A DNA stretch of 64,000 bases from Antarctobacter sp. (GTDB lineage Bacteria > Pseudomonadota > Alphaproteobacteria > Rhodobacterales > Rhodobacteraceae). This document shows positions 3,335-55,510 of this stretch, piece after piece; position 1 is the stretch's first letter, and every line of letters begins with the position of its first letter. The stretch lies in NCBI RefSeq assembly GCF_034670325.1, contig NZ_JAXMNR010000012.1, positions 16,350-80,349 of the forward strand. Direction: 5' to 3'. A program made the position numbers and the translations under genes. The notes beneath the pieces are model-generated. The model had not been told where the DNA came from and made no database searches. It saw nothing but the letters and a program-made list of their open reading frames with translations.

Positions 3335-3411
3335 TGGTGCCCGGGGGCGGAATCGAACCACCGACACGAGGATTTTCAATCCACTGCTCTACCCCTGAGC
3401 TACCCGGGCAC
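3335..3411 (-). tRNA. tRNA-Phe (anticodon GAA)
   Basis: The reverse complement reads GTGCCCGGGTAGCTCAGGGGTAGAGCAGTGGATTGAAAATCC...GGTTCGATTCCGCCCCCGGGCACCA. D-arm, T-arm and a 7-bp acceptor stem are canonical. The anticodon loop is TTGAAAA. Confidence 0.85.
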
Positions 3412-18482: not shown

Positions 18483-19694
18483 TTACACCCTCTCGATGAT
18501 CGTCGCGGCACCCATGCCCGACGCGATGCAGAGCGTGGCCAGGCCGGTGCCTTTACCGGTCCGCTCCAACTCATCCAGCATGGTGCCAAGGATGATCGCG
18601 CCTGTCGCGCCCAAAGGGTGGCCCATGGCGATGGAACCGCCGTTCACGTTGACCTTGCTGTCGTCCACGTCAAAGGCCTGCATGAAGCGCAGCACAACCG
18701 AGGCAAAGGCCTCATTGACCTCAAACAGGTCGATGTCGCTGATCGACATGCCGCTGTCCTTGAGGATTTTCTGTGTCGCGGGGACCGGGCCGGTCAACAT
18801 GATGGTTGGATCGGTGCCGATTTTGCAGGTCGCCCGGATACGCGCACGCGGCTTCAGTCCGTATTTCTCGCCGAACTCCTTGTTGCCGATCAGCATGGCG
18901 GCCGATCCGTCCACGATGCCAGAGCTGTTGCCGGCATGGTGAATGTGGTTGATCCGCTCCAGATGCGGGTACTTCATCAGCGCGATGGCATCAAAACCCG
19001 GCATGACCTCGCCCATATCCTTGAACGACGGCTTGAGCGCGCCCAGCGTCTGCATGTCGGTGCCCGGCCGCATGTATTCGTCATGGTCGAGGATCGGAAG
19101 GCCGTTCACGTCGCGCACGGTGATGAGCGACTTTTCGAACCGCTTGTCCGCCCAAGCCGCGGCGGCCCGCTTTTGGCTTTCGACAGCCAGACCGTCAGCA
19201 TCATCACGCGAAAAGCCGTATTCGGTTGCGATGATATCGGCCGAGATGCCCTGCGGGACGAAATAGCTGTCCATGGCGATCGACGGATCGACCGCGATGG
19301 CCGCGCCGTCGCTGCCCATGGCCACGCGGCCCATCATTTCGACCCCGCCGGCGATATAGGCCTGACCGGCACCGCCCTTGACCTGGTTCGCGGCCAGGTT
19401 CACCGCCTCCAGACCCGAGGCGCAGAAACGGTTGATCGCAAGGCCGGGGATGCTCTCGTCAAGGTCGCTCGCCAATACGGCAGACCGCGCAAGGCAACCG
19501 CCCTGTTCGCCGACTTGGGTGACGTTTCCCCAGATCACGTCCTCGACGGCGTGACCATCAAGGCCGTTGCGGTCCTTCACGGCGTTCAAGACCTGTGCCG
19601 AAAGGCGCAGCGAGGTGACTTCGTGCAGGCTGCCATCCTTGCGGCCCTTGCCGCGCGGGGTGCGGACGGCGTCGTAGATATAGGCTTCGGTCAT
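18483..19694 (-). CDS. fadA: acetyl-CoA C-acyltransferase (3-ketoacyl-CoA thiolase)
   Basis: Thiolase signatures present: NRFCASGLEAV with the active-site Cys, and a C-terminal GLATLCIASGMG motif. Confidence 0.9.
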   Translation of the reverse strand: MTEAYIYDAVRTPRGKGRKDGSLHEVTSLRLSAQVLNAVKDRNGLDGHAVEDVIWGNVTQVGEQGGCLARSAVLASDLDESIPGLAINRFCASGLEAVNLAANQVKGGAGQAYIAGGVEMMGRVAMGSDGAAIAVDPSIAMDSYFVPQGISADIIATEYGFSRDDADGLAVESQKRAAAAWADKRFEKSLITVRDVNGLPILDHDEYMRPGTDMQTLGALKPSFKDMGEVMPGFDAIALMKYPHLERINHIHHAGNSSGIVDGSAAMLIGNKEFGEKYGLKPRARIRATCKIGTDPTIMLTGPVPATQKILKDSGMSISDIDLFEVNEAFASVVLRFMQAFDVDDSKVNVNGGSIAMGHPLGATGAIILGTMLDELERTGKGTGLATLCIASGMGAATIIERV

Positions 19695-19709: not shown

Positions 19710-20348
19710 TCAGGCCCGATCCGCAGGGGATCCGGGCATCAGCTCATAGGGTGCTTTCCAACGGGGCAGCCCCTCGATATTTTTCAGCCACCGGTCGATC
19801 GCGGGCCAATCGCTGCGGTCAAAACCAAAGGGTTCGGGGTAAAAGAGATAGCCGCAGCAGGTCAGGTCCGCATTTGTAGGCGCATCCCCAACGATCCACG
19901 TCCGGTTCGATAGGTGTGCGTCGAGAATGCCATAGGCGCTTTTGAGCCGCCCCTGCATGAAACCGATCACCTCTGCGGGTTGTTTCTCCTTGGGCAGGAA
20001 GTTCATCAGGAACCGCGTCATGCCTGCCATTGATGACAGCTTATGATTGTCCCAGAGTATCCAGCGCAGAACCTCGCGCTCTTCGGCGTTGGTCGCTCCG
20101 CCGAAATGTCCGTAGGTCTGGGACAGGTACTGCTGGATCACGCCGGACTGGCTGAGCCGGATGTCGCCATCCTCCAGCACCGGGCATTCACCCATCTCGT
20201 TGACGTCCTGCCGATATGGATCGGACCGGGTCTCACCGTTAAAGAAATCGACCTTCACCGGCTCCCAGTCCAGCCCGGCCAGTTCCAGCGCCAGTGCCGC
20301 CTTGTAAGAATGTCCCGACTCGCCAAAGCAATAGAGTTTCATGGTCAT
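19710..20348 (-). CDS. glutathione S-transferase family protein
   Basis: N-terminal thioredoxin-like GST domain (KLYCFGESGHSYK) followed by a C-terminal alpha-helical domain. Confidence 0.7.
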   Translation of the reverse strand: MTMKLYCFGESGHSYKAALALELAGLDWEPVKVDFFNGETRSDPYRQDVNEMGECPVLEDGDIRLSQSGVIQQYLSQTYGHFGGATNAEEREVLRWILWDNHKLSSMAGMTRFLMNFLPKEKQPAEVIGFMQGRLKSAYGILDAHLSNRTWIVGDAPTNADLTCCGYLFYPEPFGFDRSDWPAIDRWLKNIEGLPRWKAPYELMPGSPADRA

Positions 20349-20416
20349 CGCGCAGCGCCTCCCGTCGCGCCTGTTTTTCCCGACAGAGCGGGGGTTTCAC
20401 ACCCCCGCGCCCCCGT

Positions 20417-20441
20417 GGAGGTATTTTCACCAAGAAGAAGC
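20417..20441 (+). repeat. copy A of the GGAGG-TATTTTNNCCAAGAAGAAGC motif (left arm of an inverted pair)
   Basis: GGAGGTATTTTCACCAAGAAGAAGC; the inverted partner lies at 20620..20651 and a third copy at 35464..35488. Confidence 0.6.
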
Positions 20442-20485
20442 TGAAAGACGCTTCCGCCAGTAACCGAGCGTTAAGGTTAACGCGC

Positions 20486-20644
20486 CTAGTCTTGTTGTGC
20501 GGTACAGGCTGGAGAGCCGATGACCGCCCAAGGAGAAGTCCCGCTTCTAGCCAAAGGATCGGGCACCGCGGGGAGGCCGATTGCAGCCCGGATGTATGGG
20601 TCCGATACGCGGCCTTCCTGCTTCTTCTTGGTCAAAATACTCAT
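20486..20644 (-). CDS. small ORF (52 aa) starting inside motif copy B
   Basis: AAGGAGG Shine-Dalgarno directly upstream of ATG; product MSILTKKKQEGRV.... No homology is recognisable, and the ORF may simply be a by-product of the repeat motif. Confidence 0.25.
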   Translation of the reverse strand: MSILTKKKQEGRVSDPYIRAAIGLPAVPDPLARSGTSPWAVIGSPACTAQQD

Positions 20645-20651
20645 ATCCTCC
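20620..20651 (-). repeat. copy B of the SD-TATTTTNNCCAAGAAGAAGC motif (right arm, inverted)
   Basis: Minus-strand reading: GGAGGATATGAGTATTTTGACCAAGAAGAAGC. The core matches copy A at 20 of 21 positions. Confidence 0.6.
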
Positions 20652-20670
20652 TTCACCACGCCGCGCTGAC

Positions 20671-21810
20671 CTAGAGCGCGCGCGCGATCAGTTCTTTCAT
20701 GATCTCGTTCGTGCCGCCGTAGATGCGTTGAACCCGGGCATCGGCCCACATTTCGGCCACGGCGTATTCCTGCATAAAGCCATAACCGCCATGCAGCTGG
20801 ACGCATTCATCCAGAACCTCGCCTTGCGTGTCGCTCAGCCAGTATTTCGCCATAGCCGCCTTTTCGACGCTCAGTTTGCCTTCCAGATGCTCGGCCATGC
20901 AGGCATCGAGGAAGGCGCGCGAGACCGTCGTCTTGGTCTGACATTCCGCCAGCTTGAAACGGGTGTTCTGGAACTGGGTAAGCGGGCCACCAAAGGCTTC
21001 GCGTTCCTTGCAATAGCGAACCGTGCGGTCCACCGCGCCTTCCATCGCGCCCACCGCGCCGCAGGCGATGATCAATCGCTCCTGCGGGAGTTGCTGCATC
21101 ATCTGGTAGAACCCTTGCCCCTCGGCACCGCCCAGCAGGTTTTCCGGCGGTATTTCAACATTGTCGAAGAACAGCTCGGATGTGTCGGCCGCGTGGCAGC
21201 CGATCTTGTCGAGGTTGCGACCTCGGCTGAACCCTGCCGCGCCTTCGGTTTCGACCACCATCAGCGACATGCCTTTGGAGCCTTCCTTGGGATCGGTCTT
21301 GGCCGCCACGATGATCAAGTTCGCGTGTTGCCCATTGGTGATAAAGGTCTTTTGCCCGCTCAGCCGGTAGGCGTTGCCCTCTTTCACAGCCTTGGTCTTT
21401 AGCCGCTGCACATCCGACCCGCCCGAGGGTTCTGTCATCGCCAATGCGCCCACCAGCTCACCAGTCACCATCTTGGGCAGCCAGCGCGCTTTTTGCTCCT
21501 CGGTGCCGTAGGACAGGATGTAGTGCGCGACGATGCCAGAGTGAATGCCGTGACCCCAGCTGGCCAGATTGGCGCGCCCGGCCTCTATCAGGATTACCGC
21601 CTCATGGCCGAAATCGCCGCCCGCGCCGCCGTATTCCTCTGGAATCGAGGGACAGAGCAGGCCCAGTTCACCTGCCTGTGCCCATGTTTCGCGGTCCATC
21701 TGGCCCTGCTTGCGCCATTTGTCATAGAGCGGCTGCCATTCGGTTTCGATGAACTTCGCCGTCATCTCGGCCAGCATGGCGTGTTCGTCGGTCATCCAGT
21801 TTTGCGGCAT
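20671..21810 (-). CDS. acyl-CoA dehydrogenase
   Basis: ACAD N-terminal, middle and C-terminal domains, including [31 protein letters not shown]. The start is chosen at MPQNWMTDE; the ORF extends to 21879. Confidence 0.85.
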
Positions 21811-21820
21811 GGGGTCCCCG

Positions 21821-22033
21821 TTATGTCTTGCGTTCGTCCAGATCGGCATTGAACAGCCGCAACCGGTGCGCCAGCGCATCGGTGTCGGTCACGCTGTCGA
21901 AGTGTTCAAAGAGGAAAGACAAAGCCTCACCTTCGTCCAGCCCCGCCTCGTGGGCAAAACGTTTGAGCTTGCGATAGCCGTCTTCGGTCATCGCGACCGG
22001 AAAGCGGCGAGTCAGGCGAAATCGTTTTGGCAT
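21821..22033 (-). CDS. small ribbon-helix-helix-like protein (70 aa)
   Basis: GGAGGAG Shine-Dalgarno before ATG. Product [32 protein letters not shown]... shows a beta-strand then helix pattern like CopG/RHH. It sits 8 nt upstream of the acyl-CoA dehydrogenase start. Confidence 0.45.
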
Positions 22034-22114
22034 GGGCTCCTCCGAGGCTGGGTGTGCCGGGCGGGTCGCCCGGCGATGGGGCGGCGGGGACATCCCACCG
22101 CGCATACCTTTGCC

Positions 22115-30893: not shown

Positions 30894-30967
30894 GACATTG
30901 TAGCTCAGCGGTAGAGCGGCAGGCCTTTGCCTGTGTGTCGGGGGTTCAATTCCCTCCTGTGTCTCCA
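30894..30967 (+). tRNA. tRNA-like gene with a canonical D-arm and T-arm but an atypical anticodon arm (apparent 6-nt loop CCTTTG); possible pseudo-tRNA
   Basis: GACATTG-TA-GCTCAGCGGTAGAGC-...-GGGGGTTCAATTCCCTC-CTGTGTC-T-CCA. The acceptor stem pairs at 6 of 7 positions. The anticodon region folds only as GCAGG/CCTGT with a 6-nt loop. Confidence 0.4.
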
Positions 30968-31040
30968 AATGTAGCTCAACAGGTAGAGCATTCGACTGCT
31001 AATCGAAGTGTCGCAGGTTCGATTCCTGCCATTTGACCCA
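30965..31040 (+). tRNA. class-I tRNA-like gene with anticodon loop CTGCTAA (GCU, Ser-type) and a C1:A72 mismatch; identity uncertain
   Basis: CCAAATG-TA-GCTC-AACAGGTA-GAGC-A-TTCGA-CTGCTAA-TCGAA-GTGTC-GCAGG-TTCGATT-CCTGC-CATTTGA-C-CCA. Its first three nucleotides are the CCA of the preceding tRNA-like gene. Confidence 0.45.
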
Positions 31041-33220: not shown

Positions 33221-34372
33221 TTACTGGCCCGCCAGACGGCGCAGCATCTGCAGTGCATCGTCAAACGCCCCGGCCTTGCGAAAGCTCCGGTCCGCCGCAG
33301 TCATTGCGACCACCGTACCGCTCTGCCGATCAACATAGACGTATTGGCCGTAAATGCCACGCGCCATGAACTCGCCCTCGCGCGCATCCGAAGGCATCCA
33401 CCACTGGTAGCCGTATTTCAATTTGCCCGGTGCGGTCTTGGCCGATGGGGCTGTGCTCTCCATGACCCATGTTTCGGGCACGATCTGTCTGCCGTTCAGG
33501 CGCCCGCCGTCGCGAAATACTTCGCCCAGCCGCGCGTAATCGCGCAGCACCATGTTAAGACCTCCCAGGGCGAAGGCCACGCCGTAACCATCTGAGAGGT
33601 AATAGGGTTCACCTTCGACGCCCATGGGGTCCAGCAAGTATTCGGTCAGCAGATCCGGCAGGTCGCGCCCTGTTGCTCCGCGCGCCACCATCGACAGCAC
33701 ATGTGTGTCGATGGAAACGTAGCGCCAGACGCCACCCGGCGGCTGATCACGCGCATCCAACCCTGCAGCAAAGCCGTCCATCGACCCGCCAAGCGCAAGG
33801 ATGCGGCCCATCTTGTTGATGTCGCTCCAGAAATCCAGATAGTCCTCATCGAAAACAACGCCGGTGGACATCTGCAGGACGTTGCGGATGGTTGCGCCGT
33901 CATAGGCGCTTCCCATCAGACCGGGCGCGTATTTCGTCACCGGATCGTCCAGACTGCCCACATGACCTTGCGCCAGCAAGATACCGAAAAGCGACGATAA
34001 ATAGGACTTCGCGATTGACCATGAGACGCGCAGGTCGTCCGGGCCGGTCCCCAGATGATAGCTCTCATGACGCACCGCACCGTCCTTCAGGACAATCACG
34101 CTGGTCACGGCCCGTCGGGTCAGCCAGTCTTGCCACTCCGGCGGCATTGTCATGTCAGGCCTCCGGGGCAAGGGGGTGGCGCGAGTCTGGACCGGGATCG
34201 GAACCGTTTCGAACAGACGGTTCATATGGCTGAAATTCTCCACGATTTCGCCTTCGTCAAACAGCGTCATCGTCGCGCGCAGGCGTTGCACCTCATCGCG
34301 ATAGCCATAGCCCGTACCCGCCACACCGATCAGCAGGATCAGACCCATCGCGGCGGCGCGCCGCCGGATCAT
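33221..34372 (-). CDS. serine hydrolase, beta-lactamase/esterase family
   Basis: S-x-x-K motif SWSIAKS. ~380 aa with a signal-peptide-like N-terminus ([15 protein letters not shown]). Confidence 0.75.
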
Positions 34373-35061
34373 CGGAACTTGTCCGCCAGCCGTTGCAGCG
34401 GATTGCGGGTGTCAGCGACGCTGGCGCTATCCTCTGGGACCGGTTTGGGGGCGGTCTCGACCGCTGGTTTCGCGGCGGCCTTGGAGGACCGCGGCGGCGC
34501 GGTGCGCAGCGCAACGGCATTCATGAACTTGCCCGGATCACCCTCGGCCAGATGCGCGGCGCCGTCCGACATGCCGCGCAGCAGATCGTCCAGCCAATCC
34601 TGATCCGCCTTGTGGAAATCGTGCAGCACATAGGCCGCCACCAGTTCCTTGCGCCCCGGATGGCCGATCCCCAACCGCACCCGCCGGTAGGCCTCGCCGA
34701 TATGGGCATGGATCGAACGCAGCCCGTTGTGGCCCGCGTGCCCGCCCCCCGTTTTCACCTTGCACTTGCCGGGCGCCAGATCCAGTTCGTCGTGAAAGAC
34801 GGTCACATCACCCGGCTCCAGCTTGTAGAACCGCATCGCCTCACCCACTGATTGCCCGGAGAGGTTCATGAAGGTTTCCGGCTTCAGCAGCAGCACCTTT
34901 TCGCGGCCCAGCCGCCCCTCGGTTAACTGCCCCTGAAACTTCGCCTTCCATGGTCCGAACCCGTGATCTTCGGCGATCCGGTCCAGCGCCATAAAGCCGA
35001 TGTTGTGCCGGTTTCCGGCGTATTTCGCACCGGGATTGCCGAGACCCACGAATATCTGCAC
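34369..35061 (-). CDS. pth: peptidyl-tRNA hydrolase with a C-terminal Ala/Pro-rich extension
   Basis: Pth signature [23 protein letters not shown]. The start is assigned to GTG, 4 nt after a GGAGGG Shine-Dalgarno; the ORF's ATG at 35073 lies within that SD. Confidence 0.8.
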
Positions 35062-35131
35062 TCTGCCCTCCAAAACCGTAGCTGCGCCCTATGTAGGCCA
35101 GAGCGGACGGATATCACAACGGGAGAGCAGG

Positions 35132-35446
35132 ATGTACCTGACTATGAATCGCTTCAAGGTCGTCACGTCAGAGGCGCAGGCGTTCGAAGACCTCTGGACC
35201 CGCCGCGACAGTCACCTCAAATCCGTCCCCGGCTTTGTCAGCTTTGCGTTGATGAAGGGGCCAGAGTGCGAGGACCATGTGCTTTATGTCTCGCACACTG
35301 TTTGGCAGGATAAAGACAGCTTTGCGGGCTGGACCCGGTCAGAGGCATTTCGGGCCGCGCATGGCGGGGCCAAAAGCTCTGGCCACATGTATCTGGAATC
35401 GCCGGAACTCGAATGCTTTGAGGCTGTTCAGGTTCTGACCGCCTGA
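35132..35446 (+). CDS. antibiotic biosynthesis monooxygenase (ABM) family protein
   Basis: ~105 aa. ABM-like pattern (MNRFKV ... HVLYVSHTVWQDKDSFAGWTRSEAF). GGGAGAG RBS. Confidence 0.6.
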   Translation: MYLTMNRFKVVTSEAQAFEDLWTRRDSHLKSVPGFVSFALMKGPECEDHVLYVSHTVWQDKDSFAGWTRSEAFRAAHGGAKSSGHMYLESPELECFEAVQVLTA

Positions 35447-35463: not shown

Positions 35464-35488
35464 GCTTCTTCTTGGGTAAAATACCTCC
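35464..35488 (-). repeat. copy C of the GGAGG-TATTTTNNCCAAGAAGAAGC motif (solo)
   Basis: Minus-strand reading GGAGGTATTTTACCCAAGAAGAAGC, lying in the 3'UTR of the ABM gene. Confidence 0.55.
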
Positions 35489-35585: not shown

Positions 35586-36224
35586 TCAGTCTTCTGCGGC
35601 CTCGGTCTCGACCTGTTCCGCGTCGGCGTCATCGTCATCGCCCGCAGCCGTCAGACCCGACGGAGCAGAGATGTTGCAGATCACAAAGTCGCGGTCGATC
35701 GTCGGCTTTGCACCCTCGGGCAGGGTCACATCCGAGATGTGCACGATGTCGCCAATTTCCATGCCGGTCAGGTCAACGGTGACCTTCTCGGGGATGTCGC
35801 CGGCGGTCACGATCAGTTCCACCTCGGGGCGCACAACGGTCAGCATGCCGCCGCGCTTGATGCCGGGGGCAGCTTCTTCACCGATGAACTCGACCGGGAT
35901 GAAGAGGTTGATCTTCGAGGTGCGGCGCAGGCGCATGAAATCGACATGCGTCGGCAGGTCCTTGACCACGTCGCGCTGTACGTCGCGGCAGATGACGCGC
36001 ACGTCCTCATGACCTTCGACCTGCAGGTTGAACAACGTCGACTTGAACCGGCCCGCCTTCAGGCGGTGGAACAGCTTGTTGAACGGGAGGTTGATCGGCA
36101 GCGGGTCTTTCTCACCACCGAAAACGATCCCCGGAACCATGCCGTCGCGACGTGCCTGACGAGCGGCGCCCTTGCCTGTCCCCGTCCGTTCCAGAGCTTT
36201 GAGATCAGGAATCTCACCAGCCAT
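35586..36224 (-). CDS. rplY: 50S ribosomal protein L25 (general stress protein Ctc form)
   Basis: L25/Ctc domains followed by an acidic C-terminal tail. Adjacent to pth, the conserved arrangement. GGAGA Shine-Dalgarno before ATG at 36224. Confidence 0.85.
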
Positions 36225-36322
36225 TTGAATTCTCCATCTATCTGTGCAGGGTGCCTCCAAGGCTGTCACCCCGCGTGAAGACGTGCCGGTAAACCGGATC
36301 GTCCTTCAAGGCAAGCGGTTTC

Positions 36323-55420: not shown

Positions 55421-55510
55421 TGGCGGAGACGAAGGGATTCGAACCCTCGAGACCCTTCCGGGCCTACTCCCTTAGCAGGGGAGCGCCTTCGACCACTCGG
55501 CCACGTCTCC
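55421..55510 (-). tRNA. tRNA-Ser (anticodon GCU), class II with a long variable arm
   Basis: The reverse complement reads GGAGACGTGGCCGAGTGGTCGAAGGCGCTCCCCTGCTAAGGGAGTAGGCCCGGAAGGGTCTCGAGGGTTCGAATCCCTTCGTCTCCGCCA. Confidence 0.85.

Follow-up and report, generated by a model that had tools for sequence, protein, structure and literature searches.

A candidate small-RNA gene bracketed by inverted copies of a dispersed repeat in Rhodobacteraceae

Introduction

Between an acyl-CoA dehydrogenase gene and a glutathione S-transferase (GST) gene of Antarctobacter sp. (contig NZ_JAXMNR010000012.1), two copies of a short motif, copies A and B, face each other in inverted orientation. A third, copy C, lies elsewhere in the same 64 kb of DNA, the whole of which was analysed and is called the window here. 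What are these copies, and what do A and B enclose? The reading we favour, with moderate confidence, is that 20349-20670 holds an undescribed small-RNA gene on the + strand, which would be bracketed by two inverted repeat units and pair through them. This answer builds on the conservation of the enclosed segment, on its covariation and the strand that this indicates, on promoter-like and terminator-like signals found throughout the family, and on the dispersal and pairing geometry of the repeat.

The features of the locus are listed below in window coordinates. X' denotes the ~11-nt inner end of the repeat unit, which occurs upstream of the enclosed hairpin (X2') and directly after it (X1'); P1 is the helix between copies A and B.

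18483-19694, - strand: thiolase gene, beyond the GST gene
19710-20348, - strand: GST gene, flanking the A/B segment
20388-20421, + strand: left repeat unit, outer part: hairpin GCGGGGGTTTCACACCCCCGC and then GCCCCCGTGGAGG; with TATTTT beyond it, it resembles a terminator
20417-20441, + strand: copy A; its last 11-14 nt, CACCAAGAAGAAGC, are X2' and the 5' strand of P1 (partner 20619-20640)
20442-20498, + strand: linker of the long-linker class, containing GTAACCGAGCGTTAAGGTTAAC (20460-20481) and a -10-like TAGTCT (20487-20492)
20500-20526, + strand: conserved 5' hairpin, CGGUACAGGCUGGAGAGCCGAUGACCG, 27 nt, closed by the pair 20499:20527; putative start at G 20499
20527-20538, + strand: X1', CCCAAGGAGAAG, nearly identical to X2' but with G for A, predicted to pair with the 3' tail through a G.U pair
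20540-20563 and 20571-20618, + strand: two GC-rich hairpins predicted by RNAalifold and by single-sequence folding, where most other family members have one terminator hairpin
20619-20651, - strand: copy B, reading UGCUUCUUCUUGGUCAAAAUAC on the + strand; pyrimidine-rich tail of the predicted RNA, 3' strand of P1 and also partner of X1'
20671-21879, - strand: acyl-CoA dehydrogenase gene, flanking the A/B segment
35464-35527, - strand: copy C, a lone repeat unit with hairpins GGGGGCGCTGCCCCC and GGCCTGCGGCC, then TCACCCCCGGAGG, then TATTTTACCCAAGAAGAAGC

Results

A covarying hairpin lies between copies A and B

The motif pattern, TATTTTNNCCAAGAAGAAGC, was scanned on both strands of the window with up to 3 mismatches allowed. 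It matched at 20422-20441 (+), 20620-20639 (-) and 35464-35483 (-), each time with 0 mismatches, and at no other site. Shuffled sequence gave a mean of 0.02 matches, and 0 of 100 shuffles reached three. The three copies described in an earlier note on this DNA stand in both position and sequence and lie far beyond chance. In a repeat search of the window, A and B appeared as inverted arms of 27 nt that are 89% complementary and 166 nt apart, and A and C as arms of 30 nt that are 87% complementary.

The most conserved stretch between the A and B arms is the 27-nt hairpin, capped by a GNRA-like loop and interrupted by an internal loop, ACA/GAUGA. Its covariance model matched the window once, at 20484-20540 on the + strand (67.3 bits, E = 1e-21), the next best score being 12 bits. 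A metagenome scan, in which the outer stem and internal loop were fixed by the pattern and the inner stem was left free, found the hairpin in at least 120 contigs from soil, peat, sludge and marine samples, at 35-73% GC. BLAST placed it in Paracoccus chromids, Azospirillum, Thiothrix plasmids (Gammaproteobacteria) and a Thalassococcus plasmid, typically between convergent genes, and a search with the alignment of orthologues also detected full-length relatives elsewhere, such as downstream of purK. Its presence on the gammaproteobacterial Thiothrix plasmids suggests horizontal spread past the Alphaproteobacteria.

Covariation was counted on 113 distinct hairpin sequences. Stem cells were paired in 99.6% of cases, compared with 17-51% in controls in which the 3' partner was slid by 1-3 columns. 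The inner-stem pairs were distributed as GC 89/CG 22, CG 106/GC 7 and UA 51/GC 50/AU 10, and the closing pair -1:+28 as AU 56/GC 47/GU 9. As the closing pair lies outside the collecting pattern, its covariation is independent, and its nine G.U pairs are possible only on the window's + strand. G.U pairs in the second GC-rich hairpin (20571-20618) also fit the + strand only. The RNA predicted for 20499-20634 folds at -68.4 kcal/mol (z = -4.3) into the 5' hairpin, followed by X1' paired with the pyrimidine-rich tail around the two inner hairpins.

A few individual loci add detail. On Thiothrix fructosivorans plasmid pTfr153 (locus L248, 76166-76206) and on a second Thiothrix plasmid, the hairpin has promoter-like and terminator-like flanks and lies between dinD and a metallopeptidase gene. 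One 3-kb metagenome contig (L175:1268-1294 and 2331-2357) carries two oppositely oriented hairpins with a common X', CATCACTTGG, so some genomes hold several neighbouring copies. In Thalassococcus sp. CAU 1522 (L246:2336-2362) the orthologous hairpin reads CGCGGCAGACTGGAGAGTTGAGCCGCG, with compensatory stem changes and an altered internal loop; the ACA/GAUGA loop is thus not absolutely required.

Known families gave no counterpart. Rfam 15 at the gathering threshold returned only 4 tRNAs for the whole window (30894-30964 + and 30965-31037 +, which are directly adjacent, 3338-3409 - and 55424-55510 -). For 20300-20720 at E ≤ 10 the sole match was a chance one to anti-hemB (E = 1.6), and 20 metagenome hairpin loci gave no match at E ≤ 0.1. 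Literature searches with the motif, the hairpin DNA and the hairpin RNA as strings returned unrelated papers only, and the hairpin sequence was not present in the supplementary tables of a P. denitrificans small-RNA survey. HRC-8-4 (ccoP-ccoG) and uORFC-8-2 (cysS), both motifs of Rhodobacterales, are distinct from this element (PMC8632094). The first 28 nt of the candidate RNA lack the StsR seed, ACUU (PMC8266604), so that, judged by the seed alone, identity with StsR is unlikely. A phage origin was also considered and rejected, there being just 1 match to the hairpin among viral contigs.

Promoter-like and terminator-like signals recur across the family

A family profile was built from 123 non-redundant members aligned on the hairpin and oriented like the window's + strand. 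Upstream of the hairpin, T at -13 (67%), A at -12 (75%) and T at -8 (79%) give the TAnnnT signature of a -10 hexamer. Conservation at the -10 positions is 59-79% overall and 89-93% in the short-linker class; G occurs at -15 in 60% of members and a purine at -1 in 98%. The 28 short-linker members also carry TTGAnn exactly 17 bp upstream of TAGGAT, with key positions at 82-93% (T at -36, 89%; T at -35, 86%).

Within the 110 nt downstream, 84 of 119 members (71%) have a terminator-like hairpin with a T-rich tail; for the opposite strand the corresponding count is 36 of 119, and for the stretch upstream it is 40. The distance from the first base of the 27-nt hairpin to the end of the terminator stem has a median of 71 nt. 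Of 79 downstream genes, 65 are convergent. Among 164 flanking proteins (117 clusters) there is no recurrent protein partner, the orthologous beta-oxidation genes excepted.

The A/B element is old and its arms covary

The element was found upstream of the GST gene (or thiolase gene), in the same beta-oxidation locus, in 11 of 11 genomes examined from about nine genera: the window, Antarctobacter jejuensis, Mameliella alba, Sagittula salina, Salipiger, Roseobacter cerasinus, Shimia, Thalassococcus and three further assemblies (one labelled Roseovarius). No site was empty. By the refuting condition set in the earlier note, a recent mobile insertion is ruled out, and with it the recent arrival implied when that note likened A and B to the terminal inverted repeats of a MITE, or miniature inverted-repeat transposable element.

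Column identity among the first five orthologues is 83%. Across all 11, pairs in helix P1 are distributed as CG 5/AU 3/GC 2, CG 6/AU 5, AU 5/GC 4 and GC 6/AU 3, and in A. jejuensis the arms have changed in compensation from CCAA/TTGG to AGAG/CTCT. We read the A/B arms as two copies of a dispersed repeat that appear to bracket an ancient candidate small-RNA gene.

Two further observations concern the orthologous loci. In Salipiger bermudensis (L243:2100-2480) both ends of the element have the full GGGGGTTTC(A/G)CACCCCC hairpin unit, making a ~45-nt inverted repeat, and the small dehydrogenase gene upstream is missing. Every orthologous locus also has a conserved open reading frame (ORF) of ~70 codons between two acyl-CoA dehydrogenase genes (window 21821-22105, -; L119:817-1029), which has no Pfam match.

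A small RNA antisense to the operon, or a fold within its mRNA?

The favoured reading, from whose sequence features we infer the production, start, end and role of the RNA, runs as follows. A small RNA antisense to the acyl-CoA dehydrogenase-GST transcript would be transcribed from about 20499, starting at the purine before CGGUACAGG and opening with the 27-nt hairpin. The purine-rich X1' would come next and then the two GC hairpins, and the RNA would end in the pyrimidine-rich GCUUCUUCUUGG, folding back on X1' to give a long terminator-like stem. Selection would keep the bracketing copies A and B mutually complementary, and in a transcript that spans both, such as the - strand mRNA, they may close the whole region into a compact structure. 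As to its role, our guess would be cis-antisense or seed-based control through X1' and the GGA-containing loop. A regulatory RNA was one of the options that the earlier note had raised for the motif, and it came closest, with the difference that the RNA gene would lie between the copies and not in them.

Several points weigh against this reading. The window's own -10, TAGTCT, is weak, no -35 is evident, and a generic sigma-70 scan returned no promoter in 20250-20750. The window copy has a long stem, and its tail, CUUCUUCUU, is not a U run. The invariance of the outer stem and internal loop was partly built in by the metagenome search pattern; orthologues found by synteny support both independently. 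Helix P1 takes in sequence upstream of the putative start, so that its covariation needs a longer transcript (from either strand) or a DNA-level constraint, the - strand operon mRNA being the obvious candidate. Counts of G.U against A.C within P1 favour neither strand, and a predicted helix, CTTCTCC/GGAGAAG, has G.U pairs on the - strand only. Lastly, X' is duplicated upstream of the RNA and within it, for which the small-RNA model offers no explanation. Both strands may carry function.

These points lead to the best placed of the alternatives, namely that the conserved structure acts inside the - strand mRNA, where B (5') and A (3') would close a ~230-nt intercistronic fold between acyl-CoA dehydrogenase and GST-thiolase. 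Such a fold might be a REP/BIME-like stabiliser, an RNase III processing site or a regulator in the 5' untranslated region of GST. The compensatory covariation of P1 is strong and both its strands lie inside the presumed operon transcript. Read on the - strand, copy B makes a perfect pairing with X2, whereas with X1 there would be an A.C mismatch, which would favour one defined fold; the U.G pairs of CTTCTCC/GGAGAAG belong to this strand as well, and CCUCC just past the element could mask the GST Shine-Dalgarno sequence, GGGAGG. We nevertheless consider the intercistronic fold unlikely as the main explanation. On the - strand the nine G.U pairs of the hairpin's closing pair become A.C mismatches, and the promoter-like and terminator-like signals are on the opposite strand. 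Moreover, two thirds of the family members have no inverted copy and are found in unrelated contexts, usually convergent with a neighbour.

The motif is the inner end of a dispersed repeat unit

The exact motif pattern was scanned over one genome per species, and the counts of loci below are drawn from the matches listed. At least 118 stretches contain the exact motif. About 105 of those among the matches listed represent many genera of Rhodobacteraceae, including Roseovarius, Mameliella, Phaeovulum, Rhodovulum, Sagittula, Roseivivax and Salipiger; about a dozen of the listed matches are chance ones in low-GC genomes. Within 942 kb of the motif loci listed there are 144 matches at up to 3 mismatches, compared with 0 in a reversed-sequence control. 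That the motif belongs to a dispersed family whose copies pair in inverted orientation, as the earlier note had proposed, is thus well supported: 21 of 22 close pairs among the listed loci are convergent. At spacers below 60 nt there are 16 convergent pairs and 1 divergent pair, the convergent ones making a long hairpin, and each of the 5 convergent pairs with a spacer of 126-178 nt encloses the 27-nt hairpin. The covariance model found five copies of this hairpin in 786 kb of motif-bearing loci, so repeat units outnumber the RNA gene by about 20 to 1.

The motif is the inner end of a unit of ~55 nt, composed of a GC hairpin, CCCCGGAG, TATTT and X'. In detail, the GC hairpin (often GGGGGTTTCACACCCCC or GGGGGCGCTGCCCCC) is followed by CCCCCGGAG or CCTCCGGCGGGAG, TATTT, 2-4 variable nt and the ~11-nt X'. 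The GGAGG upstream of the copies, which the earlier note had called a Shine-Dalgarno sequence, is present; at A and C it is part of the repeat unit, CCCCCG(T)GGAGG, and not a ribosome-binding site of that kind. The note's view that conservation acts at the nucleotide level also agrees with our results. The outer part of the left unit (20388-20421) is invariant among the A/B orthologues, its hairpin sequence recurs identically in unrelated metagenome contigs, and a pattern scan marked a terminator-like site at 20405-20418 with the tail AGGTATTTTC. A gene 3' end adjoins 66 of 68 intergenic copies among the matches listed, and only 2 of 68 lie between divergent genes. From its sequence and setting, the dispersed unit looks like part of the termination zones at gene 3' ends.

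Copy C is such a lone unit. It lies directly past the terminator of the L25 gene (ctc, 35586-36269, -) with the stop codon of ABM, a convergent gene, 18 nt away. The earlier note had placed it in the 3' untranslated region of ABM and beside a terminator; the unit is on the strand opposite to ABM, however, and the terminator belongs to ctc. The covariance model detected no small-RNA hairpin near copy C in the window. In A. heliothermus the unit is present, with identical hairpins and a 20-mer that differs at 4 positions, and at the corresponding locus of A. jejuensis (L252) it is absent and an extra methyltransferase gene is found. Lone units have therefore been gained or lost between Antarctobacter species, and the RNA-bearing pair has not. 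The ABM-domain gene itself (35135-35446, +) stands between ctc and pth (34369-35073, -), which are usually adjacent; together with the methyltransferase gene of A. jejuensis at the same site, this marks the ctc-pth junction as a small rearrangement hotspot.

Could the A/B element nonetheless be a non-autonomous transposon, a MITE, with the lone copies and short pairs as its deletion products? About a third of the family members have inverted ends of 22-35 nt, and the arms of A and B are 27 nt long and 89% complementary. Every pair spaced by 126-178 nt contains the hairpin, an 11-nt direct repeat flanks the hairpin-plus-linker segment, and the family occupies several unrelated loci, plasmids and one gammaproteobacterium. 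The gain or loss of copy C would fit as well. Against this, the A/B element is fixed at one site over about nine genera, and with one hairpin in 64 kb and five in the 786 kb, no crowd of near-identical copies is seen in the DNA scanned. No recurrent transposase occurs among the 164 flanking proteins. A target-site duplication was not found either, the outer flanks, GTGGAG on the left and TCATATC on the right, sharing no direct repeat. The arms depart from the consensus through compensated changes, a drift that a site bound by a transposase would not tolerate. The sole direct repeat, X1/X2, is internal and differs systematically (C against T), unlike a decaying target-site duplication, and the lone copies keep the linker start and not the terminator side, which shows that they are not simple recombination products. 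We regard the transposon as very unlikely here: the MITE reading is wrong for the A/B element and points in the right direction for the repeat family.

X' is duplicated around the hairpin and matched within each element

The 11 nt of X1' recur upstream of the hairpin as X2' in 102 of the 123 members (up to 3 mismatches), and X2' is always joined to the unit's TATTT. Among short-linker members, X2' shares bases with the -35 hexamer and with the first part of the promoter spacer. In a third of members the terminator is followed by a third, inverted copy, which in the window is copy B, and an inverted copy of X together with AAATAYYCC is present in 34 of 100. X' varies widely between lineages (for example CAAGGAAAT, GCCCGGTGATG and CCAAGAAGAAG) yet stays matched within each element. 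The two copies differ systematically, with G in X1' where X2' has A (C in X1, T in X2), and it is this G that would give the G.U pair with the tail in the RNA.

What maintains the duplication? A plain target-site duplication was rejected as an explanation of X1/X2, given the systematic C/T difference. Members without an inverted copy also duplicate X', so that pairing cannot explain it there. We also rejected the idea that lone copies are deletion products between X2' and X1': they keep the linker start and not the terminator side, those of Rhodobacteraceae have no consistent hairpin and T-run following, and among copies that have the outer unit as their flank none carries the G variant. The small-RNA locus of Sagittula salina has moved away from the consensus, with local compensation, whereas a second locus in that genome retains it. 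This argues for constraints within the element, at any rate among members with inverted ends, and weakens trans-pairing of X1' with the dispersed copies as the main constraint.

The ~11 nt of X' thus occur in the RNA, in its promoter region, in the terminator tail (about a third of members) and at the inner end of tens of repeat units near the 3' regions of other genes. One interpretation, which we find decidedly doubtful, is that, in a widespread small-RNA family, the single-stranded stretch evolves in step with a dispersed repeat that is specific to the lineage. If so, the RNA would pair with the X' complement in transcribed units, and the repeat would define a regulon; alternatively, the RNA gene would spread by inserting into units and duplicating X'. 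The 11-mer that occurs three times around the RNA gene poses a concrete puzzle, which bears on the joint evolution of repeats and small-RNA genes.

Could the motif and linker instead be DNA sites for a protein, such as CtrA or a nucleoid protein, with the RNA features secondary? CtrA full and half sites are TTAA-N7-TTAAC and TTAACCAT. On the - strand, GTAACCGAGCGTTAAGGTTAAC reads TTAA-N7-TTAC, which is CtrA-box-like and too near the -10 hexamer for a normal -35, and the long-linker class shows enrichment of TTAACC at -29 to -24, in most marine members as TTAACC(A/T/C)(T/A) at a fixed position. These two elements, the first at 20460-20481, resemble the CtrA full and half sites. Such a role would suit their fixed position in the marine long-linker class, the lineage-specific X' common to dispersed copies, and the operator-like occurrence of X' twice around the putative start. 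Base-pair covariation that includes G.U, however, is not explicable by a protein on duplex DNA; in Sagittula salina the acyl-CoA dehydrogenase copy has drifted while another locus keeps the consensus; and the putative CtrA match is partial. Protein-binding sites as the primary function are therefore highly improbable.

The proposal that the motif forms start sites of short leader peptides (M-S-I-F/L-x-K-K-K), also made in the earlier note, can be rejected on start-codon, Shine-Dalgarno and frame statistics and has next to no chance of being right: although copy B has GGAGG, an ATG and an open frame of 52 codons, and A. jejuensis offers a comparable peptide, a rightly placed ATG, GTG or TTG is found in only 38 of 110 copies (just 5 of those 38 with a Shine-Dalgarno-like sequence), the ORFs vary in length from 9 to over 75 codons, the frame in Sagittula is disrupted by indels of 1, 4 and 1 nt, and stem covariation accounts for the seemingly synonymous changes.

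Discussion

If the RNA is expressed, it would represent a new small-RNA family of broad distribution, taking in marine Rhodobacteraceae, Paracoccus, Azospirillum, Thiothrix plasmids and metagenomes of soil, peat and sludge. The near invariance of the 27-nt 5' hairpin suggests a conserved protein or RNA partner, and the roseobacter copies sit in a fatty-acid beta-oxidation operon. The repeat is a REP-like family for Rhodobacteraceae of which we found no published description, and it should be useful for annotation, terminator prediction and strain typing.

How do the repeat and the candidate RNA compare with known systems? Like the REP, BIME and REPIN elements of gammaproteobacteria, the repeat consists of short extragenic hairpin units in tens or more copies per genome, cotranscribed with their neighbours, which cluster at gene 3' ends and between convergent genes and form long hairpins as inverted doublets. 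Unlike REPs and REPINs, it has a conserved left end, GGAGTATTT, in place of the GTAG tetranucleotide, its conserved 20-mer is not palindromic, and one pair encloses a conserved RNA gene; a RAYT transposase was not seen, though no search aimed at RAYT was made. The short convergent pairs, with an A-rich arm, a GC hairpin and a pyrimidine-rich arm between convergent genes, are also like bidirectional intrinsic terminators. Here, however, the arm is a specific 20-mer kept across genera, which an ordinary terminator does not need.

The candidate RNA resembles the base-pairing small RNAs of alphaproteobacteria (StsR, the CcsR 'cuckoo' RNAs and AbcR) in its apparent promoter of its own, its 5' stem-loop, its single-stranded stretch, its putative Rho-independent terminator and its conserved synteny within Rhodobacteraceae. 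It differs in having no Rfam match and in the duplication of the single-stranded stretch in the promoter region. Another parallel is found in MITE-borne or repeat-borne small RNAs, such as those of the Correia elements of Neisseria, the QMITEs of Coxiella and Sib/QUAD of E. coli, where an inverted-ended repeat with promoter and terminator signals yields or frames a small RNA. In contrast to Sib/Ibs there is no toxin ORF here, and in contrast to repeat-borne small RNAs in general, the RNA-bearing copy is ancient, syntenic and not recently amplified, with a hairpin that is kept across proteobacterial classes and a framing repeat that is lineage-specific.

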